Shown here: positions 38,029 through 63,562 of the stretch, in pieces
Numbering within the stretch: the stretch's first letter is position 1
How the letters are laid out: each line of letters opens with the position of its first letter
NCBI RefSeq assembly: GCF_964194025.1
Contig: NC_134472.1
Span: forward strand, 63,922,001-63,986,000
DNA length: 64,000 nucleotides
Source: Convolutriloba macropyga
Lineage: Eukaryota
Reading direction: 5' to 3'
Translations under genes and position numbers: made by a program
Notes under the pieces: generated by a model
What the model was told of the DNA's origin: nothing
What the model saw: only the letters and a program-made list of their open reading frames with translations
Database searches by the model: none

Positions 38029-39445
38029 CTAGAATATACGCATGCGTCACAGGAGTCGAAGGAAAACAAAACATCAATGAACAACTTAAGAAGCTGTTCA
38101 TAAACACAAACCGACAAACGTCGAATGAATTGCTCTCGAAGGACAGGCGAGGGGCAATTTAACTGAGGGGTGTAGCTTAGGATTTTTATGGAGGCAAAAA
38201 ATGCGACCTCCTTTTGCGTGTCAAAGCATCGAAACCACTCACTTTTGATGATAAACCTGTACTGATAAACACTTAAACGTAATGATACCATCAACATAGC
38301 CAGCAGATTGCCGGAAAAGAGCCGATTACTGCTATTAGAATTAAAACAAGGAGAGAAAGGGAAACTCTTAGATGTCACTGAAAGCGTTTTATTGACAAGA
38401 GAAGCAATAATTATCAACAAGGAGGCTCAGTAATGTGCGCTCTCACATAAATTTCCGATCCCGCTCATCCACATTTTTGGCATAAATGTCTACCAAATGA
38501 GGAACAGATAGAAAACCCCCAAAAATTCCCAAGTATTTTTCAAAAAATGTGAATGATTAATTTGATTGCCTCCAACGTAAATAACTCAGTGGAGTAAAAA
38601 ATGCGACATTAGATTGATGAGATCAGCCATTATTACGAAAGTAAGTCAAGACGAACAAAAAAATTAGTAAAAATAGCGTCAGATAAAACTGAAAATAAAC
38701 AAAAAAACTTAAAAACTTGTACATCACTAAAAAAGATATAGGACCACTCCATAATAAGGCGGGGTAACAATTAGACAAAAAGAAAAAAAAACAGCAAAGT
38801 TAAAAAAAATTAATCAAAGTATGTTCAGTTAAGCCTTCCTCATTCGCCAACGCCAATAATGTGGTATGCGACCTCCCATTAATGAGAATAGGTAAAAAAG
38901 AGAAAAAACAGCAAAATGAAGTAAAATTTCTGAATCTTTCGAAAACATTTTTTTTCAAAGTCATGAAAGCCATCAGCTAAGAAATAAAAAAAATAGGTTT
39001 GTTTATTCGTCCAAAGGAAGCACTTGAGACCTGTAATTAATCAGAATACGTCTACAAAAAGAACGTCAAATATAGACAAAAATCAAAAATTAGTTTACTT
39101 TTGCGATAAACCCGTCGAAGCCAGTAAATAAATAACGACTTCTTTAAAAACATTAAATTTTGTACCTTTGCGCCCTACCTCGACCACAAAAATGACATTT
39201 GTGACCTGTAATTAACACGACTAGGTAACAAAAAGACAAAAAAATCCGAAGTAAAAGTATTTTTTAATTTTTGAAATCAATTATTTTCAACAAGTCATGA
39301 AAAAGCCATCAGCTATCTAGTCAAATTTTTGTGTTCGTTCTAACGTTTTTTCCGCATTGTTTGGCATGTAAGGAGAAGATATCTCACCTTGTTGCACAAA
39401 CTTCTTACAGACGTTCTGAAACTTAATCTGATATTGCTCTATGAA

Positions 39446-39815
39446 GAATTGCTCTTGAACGACAGGCGAATCAATTTAATTCAGGGGCTGTAGCCTAGAT
39501 AAACTTTTCTTTATGGGTGCAAAAAACCTTTCCCGCCGGGATTCGATACACTGACCTCCCGATTTACATCCACACGCACTAACCACTGCGCTACGAATCA
39601 CTTATCTCTGCTATTCTGTAACCGATTTAATATTAGCAACACGCTTTACTTCGGAGCAATAGAGATAACTCAAAAATGAACAACGAAAGCGTGAAAAAGT
39701 CACTTCAGAAGTCAACGAATGTTCTAGAAGAAAAGCGCAAAATTGTCAAGCGAAAAATTTGCATAAAAAGACACGTTTGCAATAATTGCTCTGAACTTCG
39801 TTCAAGAGCAATTAA
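39446..39815 (-). mobile_element. HINE-A copy carrying a tRNA-like cassette
   Basis: subTIRs gaattgctcttgaacga / ttcgttcaagagcaatt; tRNA-like segment at 39527-39598. Confidence 0.7.
39527..39598 (-). pseudogene. tRNA-derived sequence (Tyr-like, GTA at the anticodon position) inside HINE-A
   Basis: Minus strand: A box TAGCGCAGTGG, gaTGTAAAtc loop, degenerate B box GTATCGAATCC, then T6. Confidence 0.55.
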
Positions 39816-40530
39816 TAATTTCAACGCAATTAGAACCTCTGCCATAAACAAAATTATTGCTACGACTGTGCAACTTCAAAAACTGAAAACAATACCACTG
39901 GTGGTACACGCCTCTTAAACTTAAAAGACTGGCAAGCTGTTGGCTTCGCAAGTAGCTAGATTTGCATAAGGGAGGCTAACTTAAGCTTAACTTACAGAAG
40001 AAAAAGTAGAAAAAGAGGTTGCATTTGTGGGCTTAATTGGAGCGAAAGGGGGGGGGGGGGTCGCATTTGGGGGGAGTCGAACTTGCATGGTCAAGGGTGC
40101 TTTAAAAAGCTGCTTTTGCAATAAATATTAGCGATACTGTATCGAGGGATAAAACATAACCAAATAATATCGGGCTAATTTTGCTCCGATGAGTGGTTGG
40201 CTTTGGTACTAGCCAACTGGGGCTTAGGGATGCTAGCTAGCAATATGGGGGAGGGGAGATGGGGTCTCAGGGGTTCAAACACCAAGAACCGCCCCTTAAC
40301 ACAATGAATTTAAGTCACCTCAATAGCTTCGGTCGATCGCATACTTAGAGACGATTAAGCCGAAAGGTTCCAAAAAAACTTAACGCCTCCGAGTCTTTAT
40401 CTGTTTGTCCCGTTTCTGAGAAAGAAAAGTCAAAGGCGTCCGACGAAAAAATGATCAAGCAAATAATCGGATTAAAAAAACAGGACTGATATAATTGCTA
40501 AAATTTCCCTAGAGAGTAATTAAATAACAA

Positions 40531-41062
40531 AAACATAGCCGGAAAATTGTCAGGAAAAAACCGCCGTTGACCCGCTTGATGCATATCGGGATTGCAACAG
40601 AAAAAGAATAATAAGAGATAGAAAATGATCGAAATTTTCTAAGTGTCAAAATGTTCTTATTTGGTGTGTAAATTCTGCACATTTGGTAAAATTTGCACTT
40701 AAATACACTTAATTCAGCTTCTAAACTGACGGCTATTAAGCAGAATATTAATGCCAGCTAGCAACCGCTTTAAGGAAATTTGATAATGTAATGAATTATG
40801 ATTTAATGACCAGGCTTTAAAGGTTTATCTCCTTTCTTTTGATTTTGCTCTTTTGACTTTGACCTAATTCACAAAATTACTTAATTCAAAACAAAAGAAA
40901 TTAAAATCTATTCAGTTGAAACACCGAGTGAAGTAAAACAGAAGTCAATCGTGAAAACCGTGACTTATGTAAAAGAAAAAACGTGATCAAAAGGTAAAGC
41001 AAATTTTAAAAAGGAGAGCGCCTAAATAATAGCCGTTGAGAGGCTGACGGCGGCTACTAATT
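40531..41062 (-). mobile_element. HINE-B copy (second Helentron-like family)
   Basis: Left aaacatagccgg..ttgtcagg hairpin; right end ataatagccg...cggcggctact; interior similar to 60880-61310. Confidence 0.55.
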
Positions 41063-41479
41063 AGACACGGAAACAAAACTTTTAACTTCAACTTTGTGTT
41101 CCATTGCAAGCTTACAATATTTTTAAAAAAAGCCAACGAACTTCTCACTTGAGACCAACTGAAAAGCAGCGATTGAGCAGTGGAGAAAGGACCACGGTAG
41201 AAAATAACAGAAAGCTGCAATTTGCAGTCAGCTTTCAAGAAGGAGCAAGACAATCATACAATACTCGCACTTCTTGACGAATTAAAGGGAAAAAAACTAA
41301 CAAAATCTTTCCGATTGCATTTCAATTTCACTGCAAGCCTCCAATGTTTTTCAAGAAATAAAAGCACATACACTTAAGCATGTTCAAGAGAGCATCACAA
41401 AAACCATTCTTGCATCGAAAGACATCAGCCGGGATAAAAACAATGATAGAAAAGAACATAACGGGAACAAATGCTGTAC

Positions 41480-41757
41480 CTTAGATAAATTTTTCTTCAT
41501 GGATGCAAATAAATCCTACGATTGAGGAATAAGAATCCCCGACCTCCGGAGTCCTCGATAGAAGTATTTACCATTTGGCCATATCTTTCTTGTCATTTCC
41601 TTTGATACAATCGCATATATTTTAGCTACAAACTTTTTTCAGAGTGAGAGCAACTGGGATCATGCAAAAATGAAGAATGCAAAAATTTAAGCAAGAAAAG
41701 TACACAAAAGACTGACGTTTACAATAACTGCTTCAAACTTCGTTCGAGAGCAATTAA
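41480..41757 (-). mobile_element. Partial HINE-A copy with a degenerate tRNA-like cassette
   Basis: ttagataaatttttcttcatggatgcaaa block; minus-strand TGGCCAAATGG A box; right end ttcgttcgagagcaatt. Confidence 0.55.
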
Positions 41758-43074
41758 CATCACTATACCAGGCAACTAAGATTGATAAGTGTAAATACCT
41801 GGTAACTGAAACTGAGCTTTATGGGTTTAACCCATTTCTAATTTTTGGTTTATCTGATTTGTTACTGAGTTCTTTTTTCGATTCTGACTTTGTTCATTTT
41901 AGATTCCTCTGCTGAGCAACTACTGCTTAATAGCAATGCAGCACTTTAGGCATAACAAAAGAGCAGTAAAACTAGCCTCGAGAACTCAAATAGACGTCAA
42001 GCAAAATATCAAAAAGCGGCAAAATGGGGTTAACACAAAACAAATTTCCGTTTGACGAAGTGAAAAAAAGTAGGAGCGCGATAATAGCGGGCTGAGAGGG
42101 TGGCCATCACGTTAGATGAGCTGGCACTCAGAATTCATATGATAACATGAACGTAAAATTGCAACAATCCGCTTTGAAAATTGAAGTGGCATCCAATTTT
42201 TTATTAACGAAAGCCGATATAATATTTCTAAGTATTTACAGTTTTGATTAAATCTTTTTGTGTACTTCCATGATTTGAGTTATGGCTGCTGTTGTCGTTA
42301 ATTATCTTTTACTGGCCCCGGTGCTATGTTCGAATTGTATTTCAGTCAATTCATTTAGTCAACGAAAGGGGGGAAATGTTGGTTTTTGGAAAACTGTTTG
42401 CCAGGATGTTGAATACTTAAGAAACTCAGTTGAAGATGGCTTTCCTTCTTTCTGTGGTCTTTTAACTGTCATCAAGGATCTCTTCATATAAGAGTTTGGG
42501 AAGTTTAGTGCAGGGTGACTCAGAATCCCCTTGCTGTAAGCACCGACTAGCTTACAAGAATTGTTTGATAATAGTGAATTGACACACTTTGGTTTCGGCA
42601 GTAAAACAGTCAAGGAAAAATATGAGAAAAAGTTAGGAATCAAATCATGCTCAGAAGCGAAATCATAAAAGCAAAATAACATTAAAACTTGCGCTTTAGC
42701 AGACTCAATTGAGATTTTTTAATTGAAAAAAAAACTCGCCAAAAATCATCAAACCTAGCCGGCAGATTGCCGGAATAGCTGCGAAAGAATAGACACGCGT
42801 GCCGTATAATAGAGATAGAACCAGAGACAGATCTAAATTATAAAAATCGACGCCCCTCAAAAAGCTAGGTACACAATATTGAGCGATAAATTAATAAAGC
42901 TTGTTAAAATTCATCCCGCAGAAACCTCTGATTAGGGATCTTTACTGCACATATGAGTTCCTTTGACCTTAAGCAAATTCAAATTAAACTTAAATTTTAA
43001 AGAGCAAAAGTCATTTTATTGAGTGAGGTAAGTCACTTGTGACCAAAATCTAATCACGCAAAAAAGAACAAACA

Positions 43075-46000
43075 ATTTTTTCTCACTCTACTTCAAAATT
43101 AGACTAAAAAGATTTCACGCCGCAAAACCACTCGCTTTTTCGCTCCACTTCCCGTTTCAAAATCACTACTCCAACTTGACTTCAAAAATCATGAAAATGT
43201 GTGAACAGATCTTTAAAAAAAGACAGCGCCCCAATACAATTCAAATTCTTTGAATTGTAAACAAAACCAAGAGCACCGCAATATAGCTCCGCTCAGCTTA
43301 CAGCTCTAAACAAAAGTCTTGATTGTTTTATTAAGTATTTTGGGCCAATTTTGTTACTCACCAAGATAATAGAAGAAATTATAGTATTAAGAGTTAGTAG
43401 TAACCCTTGTAAACATTGACGTGAAAAGGAAAGTTAAGTAATGGGCTTTAAAAACTCTATAAACGCTATATCACTTTATCCTTAATTTTATTTACCTTCA
43501 ATGGCTCTGCTGAGCAACTGTTTCTTACAAACGCCTTGAGCCAGTTAAGAGAAGAGCGCATCTGGTCAATAGTTGCTGAAAATTTTCACTTAAACTAGTG
43601 CCAAAAGGTTAAGTAATAGATAAGTAATAGATTAAGTAATAGAGAAAGTGTTATATTTGCAAAGTATAAAAAAACAAGAGCGAACTAATATACGAATGAA
43701 TAGCTGACGCGGTCAACAATAAATGAAGTAACATCTCAAAAAGAGAGAATCCTCTGAGTAATAAGCATCCAGCATTTATACATCGCAAAAAAGAACGGAA
43801 AGTAATCGAAACGTTTGAAATACAAAACATACCCGGCAGATTGCCGGCAAGTAGCCGCCGTTGATTCCCATAACTCTATTGGGATTGAAAGAAAAGAAAA
43901 TATCAACAAAAACTGATTTTTGTAAATAAACATTTTTAAGTGTGACTTATTTTGATGTCATTTCGTAATTGCACATACTCCTGTCTCTCACTGAGAGGCT
44001 ACAGGATCTAGTATCAATACCAATAAGCATCATAGATAGTAACTAAAACTTATGAGAACAAAGTTCAAGTACCGGGCATCTAAAAATGGGCTTTATGGGT
44101 ATATCCCGTTTCTATTTCTGACTTTGATTTTTTTTAATACTGATTTTCTTCATTTTGAATAGCTTTGCTAAGCAGTGGCTGTTTAAAAGGACGTTGAGCA
44201 GAATGACAGAAGAGTGCAACCAGCCTAGAGAAGTCAATAAGATTTCATGCAAAATTTCGAAAAAGCGGCAAAATGGGTAAAGCGAAAAAGTTCGACGAAG
44301 TGAAAAAAACATAGCAGGACAAGTCTTGACCTACAATTCAAAGAAATTTCATTGACTAAACAGAAAACTAGACCTAGAACGGTCTATGAATGGATTGGGA
44401 AAACCATTTAGAAAAAAATCCAATCCAAAAAATCGAAAAACAGTAAAAATCAAAGTGAAATTGCCGCATGTGAACAAAACCACTAGCGAGAAAGCGATTT
44501 TTTGTTCAAACACCGTTTTCTCACTCTACTTTAAATTTAGAGCAAAAAAATTTCATGCCGCAACACCACTCGCTTTTTCGCTCCACTTCCTGTTTCGGCG
44601 TGACCAAAATCACTACTCCAATTTGACTTCAAAAATCATGAAAATGTGTGAAAAGATCTTTAAAAAAAGACAGCGCCCCAATACAATTCAAATTCTTTGA
44701 ATTGTAAAAAAAAACAAAGAGCACCGCAATATAGCTCCGCTCAGCTATAAACAAAACTCTTGATTGTTTTAAGTATTAAGTATTTTGGGCCAATTTTGTT
44801 ACTCATCAAGATAATCGAAGAAATTATAGTATTAAGAGTTAGTAGTAACCCTTGTAAACAGTGACGAGAAAAGCAAAGTTAAGTAATGGGCTTTAAAAGC
44901 TCTATAAACGCTATATCACTTTATCCTTAATTTTATTTACCTTCGATGGCTCTGCTGAGCAACTGTTTCTTACAAACGCCTTGAGCCAGTTAGGAGAAGA
45001 GCGCATCTGGTCAATAGTTGCTGAAAATTTCCACTTAAACTAGTGCCAAAAGGTTAAGTAAAAGATAAGTAATAGATTAAGTAATAGAGAAAGTGTTACA
45101 TTTGCAAAGTATAAAAAACAAGAGCGAACTAATATACGAATGAATAGCTGACGCGGTCAACAATTAATGAAGTAACATCAAAAAGAGAGAATCCTCTGAG
45201 TAATAAGCATCCAGCATTTATACATCGCAAAAAAGAACCGAAAGTAATCGAAACGTTTGAAATACAAAACATACCCGGCAGATTGTCGCCAAATAGCCGC
45301 CGTTGATTCCCATAACTCTATTGGGATTGAAAGAAAAGAAAATATCAACAAACTGATTTTTGTGAATGAACATTTTTAAGTGCGACTTAATTAGATGTCA
45401 TTTCGTAATTGAACATACTCCTGTCTCTTACTGAGAGGCTACAGGATCTAGTATCAATACCAATAAGCATAGATAGTAACTAAAACTTATGAGAACAAAG
45501 TTCAAGTACCGGGCATCTAAAATGGGCGTTATGGGTATATCCCGTTTCTATTTCTGACTTTGATTTTTTAATACTGATTCCCTTCATTTTGAATAGCTTT
45601 GCTAAGCAGTGGCTGTTTAAAAGGACGTTGAGCAGAATGACAGAAGAGTGAAACCAGCCTAGAGAAGTCAAAAAGATTTCACGCAAAATTTCGAAAAAGC
45701 GGCAAAATGGGTAAAGCGAAAAAGTTCGACGAAGTGAAAAAAAAACATAGCAGGACAAGTCTTGACGTACAATTCAAAGAAATTTCATTGACTATACAGA
45801 AAACTAGACCTAGAACGGACTATGAATGGATTGGGAAAACCATTTAGAAAAAAATCCAATCCAAAAAATCGAAAAAAAAACAGTAAAAATCAAAGTGAAA
45901 TTGCCGCATGTGAACAAAACCACTAGCGAGAAAGCGATTTTTTGTTCAAACACCGTTTTCTCACTCTACTTTAAATTTAGAGCGAAAAAATTTTACGCCG

Positions 46001-46105
46001 CAACACCACTCGCTTTTTCGCTCTACTTATTGTTTCGGCGTGACCAAAATCACTACTCCAATTTGACTTCAAAAATCATGAATGTGTGAACAGATCTTAA
46101 AAAAA
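43075..46105. repeat. Tandem duplication, period ~1440 bp, about 2.1 units
   Basis: ttttctcactctactt at ~43077, ~44517 and ~45957; the intervening sequence is nearly identical between units. Confidence 0.92.
43824..44750 (-). mobile_element. HINE-B copy (duplicated at 45265-46105)
   Basis: aaaacataCCCGGCAgatTGCCGG hairpin plus subTIR tagccgc; body shared with 55500-57000 and 59416-60309. Confidence 0.65.
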
Positions 46106-46214
46106 AACATAGCCGGAAGAATTCCGGAAACGACACGAAGGAGAAAAGCGCCCATAATATTGACTACACAACTAACAACTGGAACAACTATTGTGAACCT
46201 TGAACCTCCACAAA

Positions 46215-46935
46215 CGCCATAAAAATAAAGGAATAGAAACGGCATTCAAAAACATTCAACAAAAAACTATAAAAAATAAATGAGTTTTTTTAATAGTACG
46301 AGGAAACATAAAGCCGAATAAGGTTCCTTTGCAATTAGAGCAATGAAAAACAATGGGCAAGTTATAAAAGGGTGTGTAAGACACTTGTGTAAGATTAAAA
46401 AAAGAAAAACTGGAAAAAATGAGAAAAATGGTTTAAAATTTCTGAATTTTTTGGTCATTTTTCCTTAGAAAAAAATGCTTCATACCAACAAAACTTTAGT
46501 CAATTGGTATCTGACAATTCCTTAAGAAACAAGCTTCTATTCAAATCCCACTTAAAGCAGTAAAACAAAAAAAACAAGAAGAATAAAAACGGCATTCAAA
46601 AACAAATTGATTAAAAAAACGGGAAAAACGGGAAATGAGTTTTCTTTAATAGTACAAGGAAACATAAAACCGAGTAACATTTTTTCCAATTAGAGCGATA
46701 AAAAGCTCGCAAAACAATGTGCAAGTCATAAAAGGCTAAGAAACTTGTCGAAGAGTAAGAAAGAAAAAACTGCAAAAAAAATAAAAAAAGGTTTAAAATT
46801 TCTCAATTTTTCTGTCAATTTTCCTCTTTTCCTCAGAAAAAATTAGTTACATCAATAAAACTTTAGCCAGTTGGTAGCTGAATATTCCTTAAGCAACAAA
46901 CTTCTATTCGAATCCCACTTAAAGCATTAAAACAA
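46215..46935. repeat. Diverged ~355-bp tandem duplication
   Basis: aaacggcattcaaaaac...aatcccacttaaagca occurs twice. Confidence 0.75.
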
Positions 46936-47887
46936 AAATCAGGCAAAAAATCATTAAATTTCGTCTAAAAATCAGCAAAACTGATCAAAAGCCTCCAAAT
47001 GAGCATTAAACTCAAAATTAACTACTTGAAACCTTCAATTCCTATCAAAACAAGCCTGAAATTAATACAATATCATAACCAAACCTCATAACCATCAAAA
47101 GTTTTAAAAAAGTGCTTTTAAAAGCCGCATGTGAACAAAAATATTTCGCTCGCTTAGAGAAAAATTTTTCACACATCAATTTCTCGCTCTCTCAAAAACA
47201 GCGGTATGAACAAAAACCACTCTCCGCTCTTCACTTTTGTTCAGCACCAAAATCAATCCAAATTTTTTCACGCGTTTCATTTCCCGTTTCACCCTCCAAT
47301 CAAATTGATTTAAAAAAGGACTTCTTCAATACTCCTCTTCGAGTCGTAATAAAAAGACAGCGCCCCAATACAATTCAAATTCTTTGAATTGTAAAAAAAC
47401 TAAATAGGAGCGCTATAATAGCCGGCTGAGAAGATGAGGCGGCTATTAATAATTATATCTTGTATTATTTTTCCTGAAGACGACTAATTTTAGGACTACG
47501 GAGAATAACAAGAAAACGAGACGAGCAGCCCTTTTGTTAATTAACCATGAAACCGTTATTAGACAACTTAACCCAACTCCAAAAATACCAAGGTCTTTTA
47601 TATGCCCAATTCCAATAAATCTGCGGAAGAGATTCCATAAAGAACCTTCTAAGATACCGCTCTGAAGTTAGCACGAGAAATATTTTGATTTCAGTGGACA
47701 CAATGTAGCATTGAAAAGAAAAACCAAGAGAAGGCCAATAATAGCTCGTTATCGCAACTATCACTAAACTGGAGAGCTCACGAGAAATGCTCTGGTGATA
47801 TCGATGCGAGAAAGCGCTCTGCCATCGTCATGAACGTCAATTTCAGGTTGTTGGAAGTAGGGCAACGAAATAGGATATAAAACAAAC

Positions 47888-48071
47888 CTCCATCTCCCAC
47901 TGGATGATATTGGCTTCAGAGCCTCCACTGGATCCCCCTCCCACAGCTGCAGCAGCCACTCCAGCACCCCCTGCAACTCCAGAGACATCCTGATACGTGC
48001 ATAACAGTAAGAACCTCTCCCTCTGCTCGTAGTCACAGTTGTTGTTGTCCAAGATTTTCCGAATCTCACTC
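47888..48071 (-). CDS. MARK: MARK/Par-1 kinase, KA1 exon ([28 protein letters not shown]...ANIIQWEME)
   Basis: Matches MARK KA1 '[23 protein letters not shown]...QWEME'; acceptor ctcttag|G (phase 2); donor GAG|GTTTGT (phase 0). Confidence 0.96.
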
Positions 48072-51000
48072 CTAAGAGCAAAGACACTTTTGCAAGATGC
48101 ACTTAGAGCATGAACATAGCTGGTAATAATAGATGCAAAGTAGCTTTGCTTTATCGATAGCATTGCAACGGCCAAAGACAAAAATAAATTCCTCAAAACA
48201 CTTTTCGGGAGGTAAATGATGGAAGGCAGGTGAAGGGCGCATGGTGTGTGTGTGTGTGTGTGGGGGGGGGGGGAGGGAGGGGGGGGGGCAGACAGACTAT
48301 GCAATGAAAAAACTATAAGTCGAAAAGGATCAAAACTTCTTTATCTATTGTAAAAACTCTTTCCCAATGAGCTCAATCATTCGAGTCATTATAGCTCGAT
48401 GATTTTCTTAATTCATTCTACATGGGAAACTTTGATAACCATTTTTTGAACGATGGCCATAACAGAAAACATAGTTTCGTCAACATTCAAGAAATACTAA
48501 AAAATCATAAAATTCTTTAAAGACACGGTCAAAATCAAAAAACGACTTCTATGAACTCATGCCACTAATTAAATTCTCTTGTTTCTCATTATCATCCGAT
48601 GAAATCTGTCATTAATGGGGCTAAGTGATAAAACAGCAATAAGCTCAATAAATACTCGCAAAACTCAAATATTCACTAGTTTTTTTTTTAAAAACGAGCC
48701 GCATGTAAGTCAAAGAAAGCAATAGCTATGAATTGAAAAGATTTCAAACAAAAAAACTTTTTTAGAAACCATTAAAAATGGTAAATAATGAGACAAATAT
48801 ATAAGATAATAAGATAATAAACAACGAAAACTCGCAAAACTCAGAAATTCTATTATATTTCTCGAACACAATTGATGTCAAAGTCATGGAAGGCATCAGT
48901 TTTGAACAGAAACAATTTAATCAACTAGAATAACCCCTATTAGCAACCTATGAGGTCTGCTAATAATGACAATAAACAATAAGACAACAAAAAAAATCAA
49001 AAATACAACAAAAAATCAAAAAATAAACGTAGAATTTTTGAGAAAAAATAGCGTCAAAATCATGAACACTAATAAGCTATCAACTCGGAGCATTAATTAA
49101 GTTCTTTTGCGCCTCATTATCAACCAATGAGACCTGACATTTATGATACTTAGTTATAAGACAACAGATTTGAAAGTTGTCAAAATCAATAATTCTTAAA
49201 TGTTTTTTGATTAAAAAAAGTGTTCAGGTCATAAAAAGTTTCAGCTGCCCCTTGATGAATTCTAGAAATTTCAACTAGGCGCAATTAGAACACAAATGTA
49301 TCATACTAAAAGCAATCAAGGAAAAGAAACTCTGAAATCAGAAGTCAAATTGACGCACGTGAAAAAAAAACTGCCTCTCAAAAACTGAAAAAAACTGAAA
49401 AACTGAACACCAATTTCTGACTCCCCTTTAAGGGTAGTTTGGAAAAAATCACTCCTTAAACTTACTCTGATTTGCGCTCCCCTTTAGTGATTCAGCTTGA
49501 CTAAAATCACCACTCTAATTTGACTTCTCACTGACGTGAAAAAGCCGAAAAAAGCGTGAACAGATCTTAAAAAAAAGACAGCACACCAATACAATCCAAA
49601 TCCTTTGGATTGTAAAAACCAAGAGAACCCCAATAATAGCCCTAGCTATCGTTGTGCGGCTATTAAAGAATCTTTTCGGCCAACACTGTTAGCCGTCCCT
49701 GTCTAAACGAGTTTAATGCGTTTTGCATTAGAAGCGACGGTGTCGGGTCACGTTAGCTGCATTGAGCAAACTAATCAGGTGATGTCCTCCTTATAGGCAC
49801 CATTGAACTCATAAGATCAACGGATAACACACACTAATAAGAACCTACATGTTAATAATTGCTCAAAAAGTCTAGAGCTCACGCTATTGAAATGTTACTG
49901 ATAATAACGTCATACCACGTGACAATTACGTTAAAATTATGTAATTTTCATCACACAAAAACTTAACTCTTTTCACTTTCATGCTATTCAGTAATAAAAT
50001 TAAAACTAGCACTTATCGTCTCAGATACTTCGCTTTCAATATTGACCGCCAAACTAAGTTATCAAATCTAAGCCCTGTAGTAAAGATTGCTTACTTCCCT
50101 GAGAACTTCCAGATTCTCATCCGACGAAAACCCGGTCTAATAGAGGTTAGCAATATGGTTTTATATATTTTTTGAAATTGCTACTCTACTTGTCTTTTTT
50201 ATTCGTCAACAACATAAAATGCATCTGATAGTAAATAGTTTCAAAAAATTAAGCTTTTAATAAGAATAAAGTTTTTTATTTAACTTTTTGTTGTGTTCGA
50301 CAAGAAATATCCCCGAAAAAGGAATATCAACTCAGTGCAACTGACAAGAACGAATCTCAAGGGCCCAAATGAGGAATTGAAGTTCTAGTTTGTTTCTGAC
50401 GATTATGACAACGAGCAGGAACGGAAGCCAGAACAAAATTACAATGCTTGGGAGTACGCGTCAATAACTGAGCATTTGTATAGCAATTTGTCGTACAGAA
50501 GAAGAGAACACACTTGACCGAGATCTTGGTAGCAAAGAAACAACAAGACAGTCAGTCTTTTGGATTTCTCAAAAGAAACTGAAGCTGCTGATAATCCAAA
50601 GAAAAAGAAAGAGAGCATCAGTTGAAAAAATACATGGAATCAGCAAAAACGCCCATCTTGCCTTTTTCAATAGTTTACTTCCGTTGGATTACCTTTTAAG
50701 ACCTGTCAAGGAAAATATGCAAAAACGTCGTCAAAACTCTCAGCAACCAGTATACAAGAGAAAGCATATGGTACAGTTAATTGCGAGCTTCAAAGATGAC
50801 TGGAAAAAGACATGAGATGAAAACGAAGAGGAACTTTGTCCTCCAAAGCCAGAGTTTAGACGAGTAGCTGCATCATTTCGGAACCAGTACTAGCAATATC
50901 TGAAATATATCAATAACCTATCAAATTGCTCATATTCATTGCTAAGAACTAATACTATCAAGTTCTGAGCTGATTTCGCTGCTAATTTGCTCTCCAGAAA

Positions 51001-51079
51001 TGCAACTTCGTTATATCTAAATCATCAGAAAAAGAGTTTTTGAACGTAATTCCGAGACAAAATGCTTTTTGTACCTAAA

Positions 51080-51240
51080 TTTTCCTTTTAGTAAGTTTTC
51101 TTTAAAAAAATAATTTTCCTTTTAATAAGTTGTCTTTAAAAAATATTTGTCTTTAAAAAATTTTCCTTTTAATAAGTTGTCTTTAAGAATTTTCCTTCTA
51201 ATAAGTTGTCTTTAAAAAAATATTAAAAAAATAATAAGTT
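51080..51240. repeat. AT-rich minisatellite (ttttccttttaataagttgtctttaaaaaa)
   Basis: About 4 units visible. Confidence 0.7.
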
Positions 51241-51878
51241 GCAAAAAAATATAATTCAAAAGTCTGTAGAAAAATGTTATTTTGGGTATTATCTAACTCT
51301 TCCGGAAAAGCCGTTTTTATTATGTAAAAGTGATACAAATCTAATTATATCTGACTTCCTACTGTAAGTAATTTGCTGTAAAAATATTTTGTATTAAATA
51401 ATTCAACCACAAGTCTTTTTTATGTAATTTTTAAAAAGGTTCTGCAAAATTCTTACAAAAAGGCAAGTTTTTTAAAGCAAATGTTTTTGCAGCTTCTTTT
51501 TGTCACAAAAAATTTCATTGTTTACAAAATTGCAACCTGAAATACCTACTTACCAAAAACTACATTAAAAATGCATTTTTTGGAGCGCCGGGTTGTAAAA
51601 CTAACCTTCAAAGATTTGGAAATCATTGTCGTAAAAAGTCTAATTTTGATATTCCGGTACGAAAAAAATTTTTTTGGAAAAATCAAATTTCAACAAAAAT
51701 GTCTTATATTGTGTAACTTTGGAATTATGTTTTCTGCAAAAACTGTGTTTCATGATTCGTGTCTTGGAAATAAATGATGTGATCAACTTGAAAAACTTAA
51801 AACTCCCCAAAAATGTTCTCTCCTAACATTTAATTATTCTGAAATTGTTAATTCGATTTGAAACATTTTAAAATTTAT

Positions 51879-52297
51879 AACATGACCGACTAAACGTCGC
51901 AAGAATTGCTCTCGAACGACTAATGGGAGTTCTAATCAATTGCAGCCTGATTCAGTCGGAAGAGGGGGGAGGGGGAGCCTAAATGTGACTAAGAAGTTCA
52001 ATAGTGGGCTTTAAATAACCACATTAGAGGTTAACATATACCACTATAAAGATTTAAAGCAAAAAAATGGCACCAGTTTCGCCGCACTTTTCATTTGACT
52101 TTTAGTATTAAATTGCCGCCAATTGAATTCAGCTGCTTGAATTTGTCATTGAGAGAGAATTTTAGATCAGGCGAAACGCAAAAAGTCAAGGGAGTAAAAG
52201 TCACTCGAAAAGTCAAAATTCTCAAGCGAAAATTTTGCATAAAAAACACACACGTTTACAATAATTGCTATGAACTTCGTTCAAGAGCAATTAAAAA
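51879..52297 (-). mobile_element. HINE-A full copy (same subfamily as 63146-63562)
   Basis: Stem-loop CGACtaaacGTCG, both subTIRs, internal sequence closely similar to 63146-63562. Confidence 0.75.
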
Positions 52298-52991
52298 TGA
52301 CCATTTTTAGGTTTTCTTCATGTAACAGAACATAATTTAGCAATATCTAGTTGATCTGAGAAATTTCTAATTTCTGATCTAAGCCTTTTAGTACATTCTA
52401 CTTCTCGAAACACTTCAAAATATCCAACAAATCCAACTAAGTTTTGTTGTTTTAAAGCAGTTTTCCAAAACGCATTATGTAAAAAAACAATTTCAGAACA
52501 ATGAGACGTCGCAAAAGCATTGATTAAGAAAAATGAAACTCAAATTCGTTTCTACGAAGCAGTTCTCCAAAAAACGTTTTATGAAAAATGATTTGGGTAA
52601 AAGCAGAATGTTCAGGATGCTTTGTTCAATTTTTTTTTCCAAAAAAAGTTTCTGTACTAAAACTTAAAAAAAAACACTATTTGCCGATGAGTTAGAGCTA
52701 AAATGTAGATTTCTAAAAGGTAATTTCCAAAAACACATTTTCAACACAATTTTGCACAAAAAGTTCTACACAAAAAGTAAAAGTTTTAGGATACGATTCT
52801 TTAAACAACGACACTTTTGCAAAAAACTAAATAATTATTTATCAAAAAAACGAAAGCTTATTAAAATCATATTGCACCTTTTTAAAGGTAATTACATGAC
52901 AAAATAGATTTTTTACGACAGTTTTCCAAAAAACGCATTATTAAAAAACGAGGTGTTGTGGTAAAAAAAGTGCAAAAAGCATTACAAAAAT

Positions 52992-53440
52992 AAAACATAA
53001 CCGACTAACGTCGGGCGAATTGCTTGCTCTCAAACGACCGGCGAGCGGTTGGCTTGGTCAGTAGCTAGCCACGGGGGGGGGGGTGCACCGGGGGCTGATG
53101 GGGGCAGCACTGGGTGGGGGGGGGGGGGGCAAAAGCGCGGTGGGGGGGGGGGTGGAGCCAATAGTGGGGGTGGGGGGGGGGGGTCAACAAAGGGGGTGTC
53201 AACCTCTAAGAACCGCCCCTCACACCATAAGTATAAGTCTCCAAGACAGTTTGAGCTGAAACAGAACTGAAAGGCTCTAAGAGCACATAATGCCCGCTGG
53301 GCGCTACCTGTTTATCCCGTTTTTGAGGACGAAAAGTCAAAAGCGTCAGACGAAAAATTGGTCAAGCGAAAAATCGCATAAAAAAAGACCGACAGGACTA
53401 ATATAATTGCTACAAACTTCGTTTGAGAGCAATTAAAAAA
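52992..53440 (-). mobile_element. HINE-A full copy with poly-G interior
   Basis: CCGACtaacGTCGG hairpin; ttgctctcaaacga / ttcgtttgagagcaatt subTIRs. Confidence 0.75.
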
Positions 53441-54559
53441 ACACTGTAGAAAATTTGATATGAAGACTTTGATATAAAAATTTGCAATTAAGCTGAATGC
53501 AACAGCGATTTTCAGCCCTTCTTTATTAAAAAAAACAATTTTTACAGAAATTAGAAAAATTACACGAGTTTTTTTTTAAGAATTGTCGATTATTGTGGAC
53601 TTTTTGCAGAAGGAATTTTTCAAATCAAAAACAACACCCAGCCAACGCAAGTTTTCCTCTTCTTTACAAATTGCGAACTCGGGAAGAAGTGGTCCTCGAG
53701 ATTCTGGTTCAATTGCACATTTTACCCAGACAATTTTGGTTCAACAAAATATAACCTATACAAAAAAGCTTAACATGCGCGCAAAAAATATTGCCACAAT
53801 TTACTCACATATGAATCAATAAAGTATTTAGGAATCAAACAAGCATTACAGTATTATTTTGTTTCCAAATTTATGAAACGTTTTAATATCCTTTCGTAAG
53901 AATTACGTCGAATGAGAACATGAAGACACGGTAAATAATCTCGGGTGTTTAAGAGTTGGCGGCTTTGTTCTGCAGTAAGTATGAGACAGAAAACCTCTTA
54001 GGAAACGAAAAAACATATCATTTTGTTAGTAAATAGAAGAAAAATAAAAGTAGTACAAAAATTTGTCTTTCATTTGTGTGCGATGACAAGGAAATCAATA
54101 TGACGTAAGTGTGTCGTTATTATGAATACCAATTCAATCACTTGAATTGAATGGTGCTTAGCTTAGAAGGATAAGACCACCTCATAAGTTTGCTCGACAC
54201 AGCTAAGATAACCCGAATCTTGATTTCAAAAGCACTAAACTTATTTAGAATTGGAGAAACTGAAAGGAAATCAAGACATTGAGCTGTTTTTAATTAAAAA
54301 ATTCAATAATTTCCATAATTCGAAATGTTCAATTTTTTTTTACAATTTTTCGGGAAAACGGTAACATTTTTTTTAAAAAAAAAACGGCAAACGGCTATAA
54401 TCTGCTCTGAAACTATTACAAGTGATCACTTTACTCCCTTTGCTCAGTAACACGATCTCTGTTTGTAAAAAAAGTGTCTAAAGAATAACCAATCGAGCAG
54501 ATTATCCGGCTTGCTCTATACAAGAGTGGTTTGTAAATACAAAAATGGTCGCAACTTAC

Positions 54560-54715
54560 ATCATATCTGCAGGGTCCATGGCACTGGTGGTCTTCATGTT
54601 CCAAGTGAACCTGAGGGATCTGGGCTTGTGTCCTCCCGGTCCAGCCACACCTCCAGCTGCACCCGCACCCATACCACCACCTCCTCCCCCATTGGTCACA
54701 TTAGCGTCCGCATCC
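54560..54715 (-). CDS. MARK: MARK/Par-1 kinase exon ([12 protein letters not shown]...[22 protein letters not shown])
   Basis: Contains the MARK hallmark [15 protein letters not shown]; acceptor gtcttcag|G; donor AT|GTAAGT; phase 2-2. Confidence 0.96.
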
Positions 54716-55519
54716 CTGAAGACAAAACTCACTTTCAACCATACAGTTTTGAATACCTGCCAACTCCCGCGTAAATTCGATTCTATTAAATGTGATAATA
54801 TATAATAATAAATAACTGTCTATTTAAATCATTCATATATGACTGCCCTCTATCCTTGAGAAAAAATTGTAAATCTTAGCAACTTCTTTCCATAGCACGA
54901 ACCAAAATGAAATCAAGATATGTAAAATCTTGCAAGAGTTTTGTACATGTATCAAGAAACAAGCTCCGTTTCGAATCAGATCGGTGCTGTTGGAAACAAA
55001 TGCAGGGAGACATTTGTCTTGAACAATCTATTTCGATGCTTACCAGGATTAGCGACTTCTTAGAATGTTTATAATAACGCTCATAATAGAAAGTCATTCA
55101 AACTTGTCCGTATATCACGGTACACTTAGATCCAATCAAATGTTATTAAGATGTGAAAATGAAGAAAGTCGGACAATTCAACATATAATCCCAAATATAT
55201 TTTTCCAATTAGTGCTTCTGCTGATTAAATCAACTGACGCAACCGTAGATGAATTTCATACACATGAAGACAAAAAACATTCCGATGAGATGTGGCAAAA
55301 TTAAGCTGCATTTGGTTAGTGCAAATGAGCTTAAGCAAATCGTGGTGCGAAATATTCAGTCCATTTAGGTGTTGCATTTGCAGCTCTGATTTACTTGGGC
55401 AAAAAAGTTATCCAATTGCGTTCGGCAAATATAACGACAAAAAATCTAGTTATATTTTGAGTTATATTTTGATTAAAATAAGTTATATTTTGATTAAAAA
55501 TCTGTATAGGTTATTTTAT

Positions 55520-57025
55520 TGCTGCCTCTATTAGCTGATCTCAAATAACCTTCATTTAGAGTGACACACACCCATTTGACCTTATCTCTTTGAATTAAAG
55601 TAAATAAAAGTCAATTTCAAATTGAGGAAGTCAATTTTGAGAGTGAGGTAAGTCAAGTCTGACCAAAAATATAATCACGCGCATGAACAAAAAAACTCGC
55701 TCCACCAAGAGCGAAAAATGACGTCACACATGCAATTGAGTTGAAATTGCAAGAACGAATGAACAAAAAGTGGCTGTGACGTCATATGGTCATAACAAAA
55801 ATCATGACGACGAAATAAAAAAACATAGCAGGACAAGTCCTGACGTACAATTCAAAGAATTTTCGTTCACTAAACAGAAAATTAGACCAAGAATGGACTA
55901 TGAATGAAATGGGAAAACCATTTAGAAAAAAACCGATCCAAAAAATCGAAAAACTGTAAAAATCAAAGTGAAATTGCCGCATGTGAACAAAAAACCACTA
56001 GCGAGAAAGCGAATTTTTGTTCAAACACCGTTTTCTCACTCTACTTTAAATTTAGAGCGAAAAATTTCACGCCGCAAAACCAATCGGTTTTTCGCTCCAC
56101 TTCCTGTTTCGGCGTGACCAAAATCACTACTCCAACTTGACTTCAAAAATCATGAAAATGTGTGAACAGATCTTAAAAAAAAGACAGCGCCTCCATACAA
56201 TTCAATTTCTTTGAATTGTAAAAAACCAAGAGGAGGCCAATAATAGCCCCAGCTATCGCTGTGCGGCTATTAAAAACAGTCCAGTACAGCATCAATCACA
56301 AAACCCCCTATAGTACTGTTATTTGGAGCACATAGATCTTCTTCTTGCACAGTTTCCAAATACTTAGAAAAATAGACTGAAATCGAAATCCACTGTCCAT
56401 AAAAACGTTAGCCGAAGAACAGCATTGTCGGGCGGAAGATACAGCGGAGAAAAGCAAAACTTTAAAAATACCCAGTAGATTACCGGAAAATAGCCACCGT
56501 TGATTTCCATAACCCCGATTCGGAATGAAAAAGAAACATATCCACCAGATTGCCGGAAAATAGCCGCCATTGATTCCCATAACACCGATTGGGACTGAAG
56601 GAACAGAAAAACAATGATAAATATTGATTGTTGTACAAAAACATTTTGAAGGCGCGAACCAATTTGATTGATTTCGTAGTTGAGCATACTCTTGCTTCTT
56701 AATGAGACTTCAGGAACTAGTATCAATACAATGAGCATTAGAGATGTTAGCCAAGACTTATAAGAGCAGAGTTCAAGTAGCAGGCATCTAAAATTGTGCT
56801 TTAGGCGTTTAACCCGTTGCCATTTTTAAATTTCGCTTTTCGATTTTGCCTTGTTCATTCTAGATAAAATTGCTAAGTAATTGCTGCTTAGAAGAACATT
56901 GAGCGGAATGAGAGAAGAGTAAAACTAGCCTACAGAAGTCAAAAACATTTCACACTAAATGTGAAACAAGCTATGAACTAAGGTGAAGACAAAGTAAAAA
57001 AGTTTTTTCAACAAAGTAAAAAAAC
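55520..57025 (-). mobile_element. Adjacent HINE-B copies/fragments
   Basis: Element end gcggctattaaaaa at 56264-56277; hairpin+subTIR modules at ~56470 and ~56540; body matches 43824-44750. Confidence 0.6.
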
Positions 57026-57427
57026 ATGGTCTCAAAAATTAAAGAAATTACTCGAAGAGTAGTCTCAGTCATGAAAACTTCCCTTTCAATCAACTGGTAC
57101 ATTCTATGCTGAAGCAATTGAAAAGAAATTCTGTAGAAACTTTTAAAAAATAATAGGAGAAATTAGCCTAAAAACAACTTAATTTAAAAAATTGAAAAGT
57201 TCAAATACTTCTTTATATAACAGAAGCAAGTAAACTTTACAACAAAAATCATTTTCTTTTGAAACAGCTTAAACTGCTCATACAATGAAACAGCTTAAAC
57301 TGCTCATACAGCAATAGGCAAGCCATCTCAGGTTCACAAACTTTAACATTTACGGAAATGTGAACAACTGCAAGCAATTGGCAGAAAATAATTTTAAAAG
57401 TAATCGAATTTTTTTCTCAGCAAGAAA

Positions 57428-57582
57428 ACTTTTATACCATAAAAACTGTAATTGTTTAATAGGTAAAATTATTTTGAGCAATAGGCGTCGTTTCAGTTCC
57501 AATGACTTTTATACCATAAAAACTGTAATTGTTTAATAGGTAAAATTATTTTGAGCAATAGGCGTCGTTTCAGTTCCAATGA
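57428..57582. repeat. Perfect 77-bp tandem duplication
   Basis: acttttataccat...cagttccaatg twice, starting at 57428 and 57505. Confidence 0.9.
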
Positions 57583-58678
57583 ATGCGATAAAACAGCTCA
57601 AATAAAACAGATAAAATACCATAAAACCCAAATTGATTATTAAAAAGTTTTCAAAAGACTATCTGAACATCCTTATTTTTATTTAACTTTTTGCAAGAGC
57701 CTACTAAAACCACGTAAACTAAAAAAAATTAAACAAAAAAAAAATCTTGATAAGAAAAAAAGAAGAAGCTTGATAAGAAAAACAAAAGCTTGAAAAGAAA
57801 AACTCGCTCTCTCAAAAATAGCGGTTTGAACAAAAATCATATATCTTTTGGCTCCACTCTCAATTTTGTTCAACAATAAAACGACTGAAAAACTTTTCAC
57901 CCGTCAATTCCTGGTTCAAAATTCACTCCAATAAAACTTGTTTATACTGCGCTTCGAGTAGTAAAAATAGGGCCACTAATAGCCAGCTGAGAAAACAAGG
58001 GTGACTATTAAAAAGCCACCAATGGACACATTTACTAGATGACACGAGACTATGACTATCAGCAACGGAGACGATCAGAATCGATAATGATTGAAATGAA
58101 GATGACATTTGTTTGTACTGAATAGTAGCTCAATTTCAGCAGACAGACAATGTTAACTAGTTCATCATAGACAATGTTGCTAACAGAGTTACACAGTTAA
58201 GCTAAGCTCATGAGTATCAGTAGAAAATCACATCAAAACATCCCAACAGTTTCTTAACTCGGAACAAAATTGCCATCAACGTTTCATAGTTGTACTTCTT
58301 TGCCACGATTTACACTAAGTTGAATAATAGTGCTACCCTTAAACCAAACTAAACAAACAATTATCAGGGCAAAATTACTTCTTTCTTGGTAATATATGCT
58401 ATCCCGCCACCTTAAAAAAATAGGTAGTTTACATTTTATTTTATTTTTAATTTAATATATGTGAATTTAGGTGATTTTTTAAAGGTGGCTGGATAGCATA
58501 TATTACCCACTACTAACATTCAGACATATTTCCAGTATTTTTGTTTTTCAGGTTCTCAAAAATGCTAAAAACAATGTAGAATGTGATAAGTCCTCGAAAA
58601 ATTAGAATTTCACAGGTCACGAGGATATAAAGAGACCATTGGGTTGTTTGTCCGATGTATTGTGAGTGTGCTACTTGC

Positions 58679-58738
58679 CCTGCAGAAACAGCAGTAGAAT
58701 GATGTGTGAAAACTGAGAAACTTTTGTGACGACGGCCG
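58679..58738 (-). CDS. MARK: Candidate small MARK exon (GRRHKSFSVFTHHSTAVSAG) with a GC donor
   Basis: Acceptor attttcag|C; 60 nt open in phase 2-2, as the next exon requires; donor GG|GCAAGT (GC-AG type). Confidence 0.55.
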
Positions 58739-59055
58739 CTGAAAATATAGAATCAATTGTGAACTTGACCAGTGAATTTGGACGACACGACTCATGAAAA
58801 GTATGAATCATGAAACGTATTTAAACATAACTGACTAACTTCGGGCGAATTGCTCTCAAACGACTCGCGAGGAGTTTGCTTTATCAGAAGCTTGATACGG
58901 TTCAGGGAGGCCAGGTTTCGTTTAATTAACAAGTCCTGAATTACAATCCAAAAGGTTGAAAGCAAAATTTGATAATCACTGACTCAATCGGCAGACTGAC
59001 ATACCATTGCCAGACAAGCAAAAATTTTGTAAATTTACAGCAAAACATCAAAATT

Positions 59056-59415
59056 AAACATGACCGACAAGCGTCAGATGAAATTCTCTCGAACGACAGG
59101 GGGCCGTGGCCTAGATAAATTTTTCATTATGAGTGCAAAAAAAATCCGACTAGGGAGGGGTTCGAACCCGCGATGACCTACCCACTTATCCACTGCAGCA
59201 TTTACCACTCGGCCATCAGACCCTTGTGCTTGCTTATCTTACAGTCGATTTCGTTTCAGAAAGACTTAATTTCTGAGTAGGAACAATTTAGGTCACGCAA
59301 AAATCAAGCGTGAAAAAGTCACTAAAGTCACTCGAGAAGTGAAATCAAAATATAGAACAAAAGGGCAAAAATATTCCAAGAAATGCTTCAAACTTTCCTC
59401 GAGACCAATTAAAAA
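59056..59415 (-). mobile_element. HINE-A full copy with tRNA-like cassette
   Basis: Degenerate hairpin and subTIRs; directly abuts the HINE-B copy at 59416. Confidence 0.65.
59145..59222 (-). pseudogene. tRNA-derived sequence inside HINE-A
   Basis: Minus strand: A box TGGCCGAGTGG, B box GGTTCGAACCC, followed by a T-run; acceptor and anticodon stems imperfect. Confidence 0.6.
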
Positions 59416-60309: not shown

Positions 60310-61655
60310 ACTCATACAATCCAAATTGCGTTGATTGTAAAAAACGGATTAGGAAAAGTACTGAATAACAGTGCAAAGAATTGAACAAAAAGCTGTAAGA
60401 TTTTGACCTGACCAGCCAGTCACTTAACCAAAAAGAGCCAGACAGACCAATAATAGCATTAACATTTTAAGAGATAATATTAAACATAGCCAACGTTTTG
60501 CAAAACAAAATAGCTGCCAACGACCAGAAGATAAATCGTCAGAAAATAAATCTTAGCGCCCGTTGGTTTATCCCTAATCGCTAGACACAGCTTTTCGACA
60601 CTGAATTTATTTGCGTAAATGTGCGGCATGAATTCCGAACTCGGTTCATTTGAAACAGTGAGAGGTAATTAAGAAGTCAACGGTAGAAATTGTGACTTAC
60701 GTAACCGTTTAGAGAATGACGACATCTACATAGATGCTCTTGCTGTGAAATATTGAAAGAAATGTGTCTCTATGAAAACGCAGGAAAGCTATAACAGATA
60801 AACTGCTAGTGAACGCAGAAAACTAGCTTGGCACAGATTTACAAATCGATTTACATATTGAATCAGAAAAGAAGAGATCAAATTTGACGGATTTTTTCTT
60901 AAGTTTCAAAAAGTGTTCTAATTCGGTGTGCAGTTTCAGTTTGATTCTAAAATTATACTTAATTCAGCTAGTAAACTGAAAGATATTAAGCTTAATACTA
61001 ATGTCAGCTAGCAATTCCTCTAAAGAACTTTGATAACCTAATGCACTATGATTTAATGACCGCGCTTTATTGGTATATCCCGTTTCTTTTGATTTTGCTC
61101 CTTCAACATTGACCGTATTCACTTTATTGCGTATTTCAATGTGTGAAAGAACTTTCAATCCATTCAGTTGAGACAGTGAGTGAGGTAAGTCACGAGTAAA
61201 AAAAATTGTGACTCAAGTAAAACGAAAAATGTGACCAAAAGGTAAAGCGAATTGAAAAAAAGGAGAGCACCTAAATAATAGCCGTTGAGAGGATGACGGC
61301 GGTTATTAATCACTCAAAAATGAAGACGAAAAGCGTGAAAAAGTCACTCGAGAAATCAAAGAATGTTTTAGAACAAAAGCGCAAAAATGGTCAAGCAAAA
61401 ATTTTGCACAAAAAAGACACCCACATTTACAATAGTTGCTTCAAACTTTGTTTGAGAGCAATTAATAAACAGTTCAGCAATCAGCTTTAAGATGATAGCG
61501 AGGATTAATATCCATTTTAGTCGTGATATGACATGCTATAATGGTTCCTTCATTTGTCAATTGTTCTAAGTCCAAAAGCCAAAGATACTTCTGATCTCTA
61601 AACAAATCCACAAGTCAAAAACATTTCGGCTTCGAGTGCTCACTAAAATCATTAC

Positions 61656-62296: not shown

Positions 62297-63145
62297 CTGC
62301 AAAGCAGAAACAACACTTACCCAAACACGTACTCTTAAAAAACTTTCGACAACACTTGAAAATACCGCCATGACAACAATTAGCAATGCGATCCAACTTA
62401 TGCGAGATGGTCGATGAATTGAAGTGAAACGAATGAAGTCAACGCGAAGGGTTCAACCAATTGCGCAATCTGTTCATCACTTAAATGACTCAATGACTCT
62501 AGAAAAGCCGAACGCTGAAAAGTGATATATTGAAGTACTGAAAGACAGACATTTGACATTTTGGTCTTTTTGAACACTAATGGCTCTACTGCTTGTCCGT
62601 TTATGCTACGAAGGTCGCGAAACAAATTATTTTTATTAGAAAAACTATTCTAATATTGAAATCCAAAGCCCATACGTTACCTGAAGCGGACGGAAAGATC
62701 CAGCGAAAAATACCCAAAATTTTAAAAGTAAAAGATGTGTTGAGATAGATATACATCACTGGAATACACGAGAGTAACCCATAACTTTTTCCTGCTATTA
62801 GACGTTTTCTAAAAGCACATATGGTCAAATTTTCTTAAGAGATTTTGCCAAGAACAAGAGAAATGGTTTAAAAAATATGGAGTTTTATCACAGCATAAAA
62901 ACCTAATAGGAGGAAACGCATGTTTTGGATCGAAATGTCTTTCATTCACAACTGTTGGATATAGTTTCTCAAAGAAGAGACCAGAGTCAAAAAACCTCCA
63001 GCGACGAGATTCTCGACTTTTCAGCTAAATTGAACAAAAAGAAAAGCGATTACTTACTTTTGAGGGTGCAATACAATCAAATGGACGGTATTTGTTTGTT
63101 AGCTCCCCAAACAAGTTAAATAACAAAACCAATTGGTAACAACCG

Positions 63146-63562
63146 AACATAACCGACTAAACGTCGGAAGAATTGCTCTTGAACGACTAGTGGGAGCTCT
63201 AATCAATTGCAGCCTGCTTCAGTCGGGGGGGGGGGGGGTAGCCTAAATGGGACTAAGAAGTTCTATAATGGGCTTCAAATAACCACATTAGAGGTTAACA
63301 TATACCACTATTAAGATTTAAAGTAAAAGATCACACCAGTTTCGGCGCACTTTTCATTTGACTTTTAGTATTAAATTGCCGCCAATTGAGTTCAGCTGCA
63401 TGAAATTGTGATTGAGAGGGAATTTTAGATCACGCGAAATGCAAAAAGTCAAGGGCGTAAAAATCACTCGAAAAATCAAAATTGTCAAGCAAAAATTTTG
63501 CATAAAAAAGACACACACGTTTACAATAATTGCAATGGACTTCGTTCAGGAGCAATTAAAAA
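63146..63562 (-). mobile_element. HINE-A full copy
   Basis: CCGACtaaacGTCGG hairpin; gaattgctcttgaacga / ttcgttcaggagcaatt. Confidence 0.75.

Follow-up and report, generated by a model that had tools for sequence, protein, structure and literature searches.

A tRNA-gene-like unit with A and B boxes and a T-run forms the centre of one clade of HINE-type Helentrons in Convolutriloba macropyga

Internal RNA polymerase III (Pol III) promoters are a textbook mark of retroelements. The TRIMp3 elements Helenus, Ajax and Cassandra are non-autonomous retroelements that carry an internal, small-RNA-derived Pol III promoter in which the boxes are kept and tRNA function is lost, and their transcript is the proposed template for mobility (PMC10886601, in the sections available). 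HINE and DINE-1 elements are recognised by a 5′ subterminal inverted repeat (subTIR) with an adjacent inverted repeat, a 3′ subTIR, a 3′ hairpin and T-rich ends, together with an unmodified TT target, a conserved 5′ part, a variable centre, tandem arrays and no open reading frame (ORF), as described in parts of PMC4067079 and PMC2374699; the accessible part of the latter reports DINE-1 to be without Pol III boxes or tRNA similarity. The main text of the HINE paper (PMC4067079) does not contain the term ‘tRNA’, and that of PMC10886601 contains neither ‘DNA transposon’ nor ‘Helitron’. Literal-term searches of open-access papers, with supplements (such as the HINE tables of PMC4067079) and Repbase/Dfam outside their scope, found no report of a Helitron/HINE or a MITE (miniature inverted-repeat transposable element) with an internal tRNA promoter. 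Here we analyse a 64-kb window (the whole stretch of DNA studied, G000:C5:63922001-63986000) of the 1.18-Gb genome of C. macropyga, which contains repeats that share the HINE/DINE-1 features listed above. Unlike DINE-1, one clade of them has a full A box, B box and T-run unit as its centre. To judge from the alignments, what is new is that tRNA-gene geometry and boxes are retained across five HINE subfamilies while neighbouring columns turn over. We favour, with a probability of about 0.55, the reading that this HINE branch inherits the unit and its T-run with the backbone, likely from one captured tRNA gene, and that the boxes are likely kept because occupancy by Pol III or TFIIIC helps master copies to mobilise.

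The repeats are ~400-bp, non-coding, non-autonomous Helentrons of the HINE/DINE-1 type. Their layout in 30 aligned copies runs from TT through a 14-bp 5′ subTIR with its own inverted repeat and an A/T-rich interior to the tRNA-like unit, which the T-run and a block follow; the 3′ subTIR comes next, then a hairpin and finally a T-rich end. The subTIRs lie at HINE-like distances from both ends, those of HINEs being 12-15 bp long and separated from the 5′ end by 2-4 nt and from the 3′ end by ~38-60 nt (PMC4067079, in part). The partial inverted repeat adjoining the 5′ subTIR is present, as in HINE/DINE-1, and so is the short hairpin close to the 3′ end, which is gone from the copy at 39.4 kb. TT lies immediately 5′ of the element in 60 of 70 A-clade copies, and just one of the 70 has an end repeat of at least 7 nt, indicating that there is no target-site duplication (TSD). 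When 59 copies with both ends were checked for empty sites, candidate paralogous sites were obtained in the sampled genome DNA for eight (four clean, four ambiguous), and in the four clean cases insertion adds the element with its terminal Ts and nothing else. Contigs of four runs from one study (type unrecorded) covering 38900-42200 gave no empty-site joint among the 15 joints listed, 431 others being unlisted, and are not counted as evidence. An earlier reading of the window, made from its letters alone and referred to here as the sequence-only reading, had proposed a rolling-circle element rather than a short interspersed element (SINE), and the HINE ends, the TT insertion and the lack of a TSD agree with it.

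The block that this reading described as shared between copies is present at four sites, 2577-2608, 39495-39526, 41481-41512 and 59111-59142, the repeat being read on the minus strand. The copies that carry the unit or its remains are as follows.

39444..39815, minus strand: HINE copy of the young subfamily A, with the 5′ subTIR at 39798-39811, the inverted repeat at 39786-39796 and the 3′ subTIR at 39449-39462; 3′ hairpin lost
39527..39600, minus strand: tRNA-gene-like unit of the subfamily A copy, with the A box at 39583-39593 and a damaged B box at 39539-39549; profile E-value 8e-14
39521..39526, minus strand: T6 run, predicted to act as Pol III terminator; the shared block comes next, at 39495-39519
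59056..59412, minus strand: HINE copy of the old subfamily B with both ends kept, 3′ subTIR at 59083-59096 and hairpin at 59064-59077
59145..59222, minus strand: tRNA-gene-like unit of the subfamily B copy, with the A box at 59205-59215, an intact B box at 59158-59168 and T8 at 59137-59144; profile E-value 2e-07
41481..41757, minus strand: decayed B-type copy, 3′ end gone; unit at ~41520-41583 with an A-like box at 41571-41581, no B box and an interrupted T run; profile E-value 0.001
38103..38250, minus strand: 3′ fragment in which part of a unit is left, without its B box and recognised by eye only; T run at 38196-38201, 3′ subTIR at 38130-38143 and hairpin at 38111-38124

As had been noticed, the unit lies in the sense of the element and runs into a T-run that the element itself encodes (the T6 and T8 above). 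The unit and A box at 39.5 kb stand, but its B box has two mismatches at core positions and the ‘GTA loop’ singled out there is a variant of this copy and not of the subfamily majority. The unit at 59145-59222 likewise has its A and B boxes, but is a diverged homologue of the 39.5-kb unit and not a different cassette. The degenerate unit near 41.5 kb was recovered by the profile, whereas the one proposed at ~38.2 kb was missed by it, and by eye retains no more than its A-box end and the variable loop. A first look at the genome with the 39.4-kb copy returned 5015 candidates, of which 40 were scored and align at 87-90% identity over almost the entire query; the set represented by the 59-kb copy, subfamily B, numbers 1168 candidates at 68-82% identity and is older.

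The geometry of the unit was compared in the majority sequences of five subfamilies (A, A2, A3, B and D). The copy used as query was removed from each family's alignment, and for subfamily D nine of 20 rows were taken out, namely the query itself and eight copies close to it in tandem arrays. Unit type E, the sixth, sits within a long element of another kind and did not enter the final comparison. In all five the A and B boxes are 44 nt apart and the unit is 75-78 nt long and followed by T5-7, in agreement with the complete ~75-nt A/B unit originally envisaged. The unit begins ~220 nt from the 5′ end of the element. Among 176 near-full copies (67 of them subfamily D, many from tandem arrays and hence not independent), both boxes are within one mismatch in 107, with the 44-nt spacing in 97 of these, a downstream run of T4 or longer in 100 and of T5 or longer in 74. 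The A-B spacing is 43-44 nt in 12/12 of the real tRNA types of the genome that were compared. Tandem arrays of subfamily D occur at several loci (L206; L228-L247), with a period of ~690 bp and an A/B unit in each repeat.

Units and backbones were then compared for common descent. The subfamily B copies represented at 59 kb align end to end with subfamily A, unit included, and units intermediate between A and B exist (L046, L049). The left part, unit and right part are nearest to the same group in 163 of the 176 near-full copies; the 13 discordant copies comprise four of a HINE family, C, that has no unit and nine old copies that fit every majority sequence poorly. The non-tRNA ‘slots’ are separate HINE families with shared ends, and DINE-1 is likewise known for a centre that varies (PMC2374699, in part). 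The units thus appear, from these distances, to descend with their backbones, and the swapping of different tRNA cassettes that the sequence-only reading had put forward is mostly not supported.

The frequency of the unit was estimated in 1.17 Mb of sequence, sampled at regular spacing as 117 ten-kb stretches, using a profile trained on other loci and reversed sequence as control. The profile gave 27 matches against none in the control, of which 22 lie in HINE interiors (15 in one tandem array and seven in five other stretches) and the remaining five in a MITE family (three), a Mutator-like (MULE-like) element (one) and a long terminal repeat (LTR) family (one). Of 50 HINE 5′ ends in this sample, 17 are followed by a unit, mostly within one tandem array that contains 15 of the 50, and unit-bearing copies are therefore a minority clade. 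Extrapolated from ~6 sites per 1.17 Mb, there would be a few thousand unit-bearing sites genome-wide.

Tests for a conventional tRNA were negative: ARAGORN called no tRNA in the 64-kb window, Rfam gave no tRNA match in window positions 36-64 kb or in ten loci, and the units have no common fold, the cloverleaf being gone. ARAGORN calls on units were obtained only at a lowered threshold, which yields spurious calls too. In a comparison with 12 anticodon types, the best match was subfamily B against Arg(TCG), with a z-score of 5.5. The unit likely derives from a single captured tRNA gene, and since the T-run lies 3-5 nt beyond position 72-73, we infer that the source was a whole tRNA gene with its terminator and not a SINE head. 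Tandem tRNA gene arrays are present in the genome, and some of them (L124, L134, L137) include anticodon variants, namely a Cys-type body with GGA and a Lys-type body with TTG or TTA.

The boxes and the rest of the unit have diverged at different rates. Across the five subfamilies, 5 of 22 box columns are variable compared with 58 of 69 non-box unit columns (p=2e-7) and 44 of 141 interior columns, and the box variants sit at what we take to be degenerate positions of the A- and B-box consensus. The expectation that the boxes are more conserved than their flanks consequently holds against neighbouring unit columns, but not against the interior. Among 67 A-clade copies, the ratio of between-subfamily to singleton changes is 7:56 in the boxes, 82:163 in the non-box unit (p=3e-4) and 56:284 in the interior, non-box unit and interior also differing (p=3e-6). 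In inserted copies the boxes show no shortage of singletons (rate 0.038 compared with 0.027 in the interior). Inserted copies are thus without box constraint, and therefore selection, if any, is on master elements and not on the host. The boxes appear to persist in amplifying lineages and to decay freely after insertion, a constraint on master lineages that is read from the contrast between subfamily and singleton changes, not from per-branch site rates on a tree. Singletons are 1.4-fold commoner in the unit together with the 22 nt upstream of it (187/5301) than elsewhere (452/17689; p=2e-4), peaking within 15 nt on either side of the A-box start. Divergence is likewise raised at active tRNA loci, there with an excess of C>T/G>A changes (PMC6130373, in the part available), and the singleton excess is a hint of transcription, not proof of it.

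The course of events that we favour would begin with a HINE ancestor that captured a tRNA gene together with its terminator, as the geometry suggests. The element would move as DNA through a Helentron RepHel protein, to judge from its ends and insertion sites. The predicted transcript of ~75-80 nt would start internally and stop before the 3′ end; because it lacks both element ends, it would be unusable as a template for transposition. This differs from the TRIMp3 retroelements, whose transcript is the proposed template (PMC10886601, in part), in that the ends here are those of a DNA transposon and the predicted terminator precedes the 3′ end. As boxes, spacing and T-run are kept but structure is lost, TFIIIC or Pol III may act in cis at master copies, where the benefit could be open or melted chromatin adjoining the 3′ subTIR and hairpin. 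The fast drift of non-box columns would then reflect relaxed constraint and a locally raised mutation rate.

Several points weigh against this reading. Most HINE ends are without a unit, which is therefore dispensable for transposition. The boxes show no extra conservation relative to the A/T-rich interior, either in the subfamily/singleton contrast (p=0.35) or in the column comparison (p=0.62), so that the box signal exists only relative to neighbouring columns. Our choice of subfamilies A2, A3 and D for their different-looking units inflates non-box divergence, subfamily B is an old mixture of copies, and only the top 20-30 matches per family were sampled. A deamination-type C>T/G>A bias was sought among the unit singletons and none was found, unlike the pattern at tRNA loci (PMC6130373, in part). 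Neither three Helentron/Helitron loci examined over a long span nor 15 short ones contained an autonomous partner with these ends. The genome does hold 90 PF14214 matches and a Helentron-like ORF of 2509 aa with OTU, Rep and PIF1 domains; open Helentron-like ORFs of ~2470-2515 aa, some of them clustered, were also seen (L347:2027-9553; G000:C10:43.2-43.6 Mb; C4:51.2 Mb).

The main rival, which we consider unlikely, is that a tRNA gene was captured into the variable centre as neutral cargo and is now decaying, the retention of the boxes reflecting few lineages and chance. In its favour are the parity of boxes and interior, the success of unit-less families that have the same ends, and the fact that the centre is the fastest-varying part of DINE-1 (PMC2374699, in part). 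It accounts poorly for the contrast between box and non-box columns given above, and for a 44-nt spacing and T-run kept in five of five subfamilies despite loss of the stems.

A narrowed form of cassette exchange, in which the unit is swapped or gene-converted between sister lineages whose backbones are near-identical, seems to us improbable. It would explain why a comparison of A with A3 shows differences at 25 of 69 non-box unit columns, yet at only 2 of 159 interior, 2 of 58 3′ block and 0 of 47 3′ terminus columns, and why pairs at a left distance below 0.05 reach a unit distance of 0.44. However, none of 15,400 pairs combines a divergent backbone (left distance >0.25) with a near-identical unit (distance <0.15), and the intermediate units also speak against it. 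When the A3 unit and 3′ end were used as query, A-like 5′ parts were recovered (nine of 20 rows displayed, the majority line being from all 20), and hence no donor lineage was seen.

Small RNAs or TFIIIC-type insulators were the functions originally suggested for the unit. Co-option of dispersed copies by the host for either purpose, with purifying selection on the boxes, we regard as quite improbable. The thousands of candidates and the complete A/B/T geometry would suit such a role, but box singletons are not depleted (a test that a few co-opted copies would escape), the B box is damaged or absent in two of the three window units that the profile found, and there is neither a shared fold nor an Rfam match. 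Independent SINE insertion is very improbable and already disfavoured. Most SINEs are defined by tRNA heads (PMC10886601, in part) and a head captured once long ago could be the origin, but none of the 27 unit matches is free-standing, and every copy has the unit at the same place, flanked by neither a tail nor a TSD. The likeness to SINE2 elements lies in tRNA-like A/B boxes within a short high-copy repeat, which here are internal and not a 5′ head, are followed directly by T5-7 and have no LINE-like tail.

A/B units were also found in elements of other classes. Family M (L097:7030-7680, L208-L227; 2619 candidates) is a MITE of ~530-620 bp with CCC...GGG inverted ends and subterminal repeats, which from its ends and TSD we presume to be CMC/EnSpm-like. 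Its internal A/B unit has a spacing of 43 nt and T6, and a 2-bp TSD was seen in six of the nine end pairs listed, the other three coming from two compound loci. Comparison of the MITE unit with the HINE unit gave z-scores of 1.0-3.2, similar to those of unit versus tRNA. Family X (L270:1162-3190, ~2 kb; 67 candidates) has inverted ends, an A/B-box unit near one end and the remnant of a MULE-like ORF (MULE domain match, E-value 4e-5, below the curated cut-off). An LTR-like family (L185:3080-3300; L280-L291; 158 candidates, many in same-strand pairs ~10 kb apart) represents a ~10-kb element with the unit inside long terminal repeats, copies of which are 95-99% alike, and with DUF1759 downstream; we take it to be BEL/Pao-like, and perhaps a full-length element akin to the TRIMp3 idea. 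A HINE-derived interior with unit and T7, without HINE ends, also occurs inside a young long repeat (L349:90-301; L292-L311). On contig C3007 this repeat is arranged in tandem with a unit length of 16.55 kb and has ORFs of 1452, 483 and 281 aa; these have no Pfam match, and a PDB match only to an N-terminal zinc-finger, and we read the repeat as Polinton-like. It is a tentative idea, and a doubtful one as a whole, that DNA transposons have been selected in parallel, in HINE, CMC/EnSpm-like MITE and MULE-like element, for a functional Pol III promoter from which no template is made, as a counterpart of TRIMp3. TFIIIC/Pol III occupancy would keep the ends of donor copies accessible or free of silencing, while fast evolution of the transcribed part would let it escape small-RNA surveillance.

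The remaining HINE copies in the window are the following.

2503..3367, minus strand: HINE from a different family that shares the ends and 3′ block, with an unrelated interior including a G-rich tract at 2668-3056, and no tRNA-like unit
51878..52294, minus strand: HINE of family C, ends shared, central region non-tRNA
63145..63559, minus strand: second copy of family C, ends shared, centre non-tRNA
52993..53436, minus strand: HINE with shared ends and a C-rich centre, without the unit
61300..61465, minus strand: 5′ fragment with an A/B-type interior, cut off before the unit
58823..58870, minus strand: lone 3′ end with subTIR and hairpin

The G-rich tract, previously taken for an alternative content of the slot, is there, but belongs to a different family whose interior has 2708 candidates genome-wide; family C recurs elsewhere in the sampled genome DNA. 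Between 2244 and 63559, 10/10 HINE 5′ ends and 8/8 3′ ends are on the minus strand, with a single 3′-type motif on the opposite strand at 26776. HINE pairs within one sampled stretch (L061-L117, L148-L207) are on the same strand in 39/39 cases, which are not independent, 31 coming from two stretches. This co-orientation may arise partly because copies have inserted into older HINEs on their T-rich strands (L024, L326). Other dispersed or tandem repeats of the window lie at 7934-13650, 43069-46090 and 14903-15997, with periods of ~1.6-2.1 kb and 1.44 kb and 73-nt units.

If the reading that we favour is true, a rolling-circle DNA element that keeps a promoter and terminator without an RNA template would demonstrate a role for Pol III in cis in DNA transposition. 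Thousands of potential TFIIIC sites would then be scattered in the genome, and annotation of such units as SINEs would be misled.

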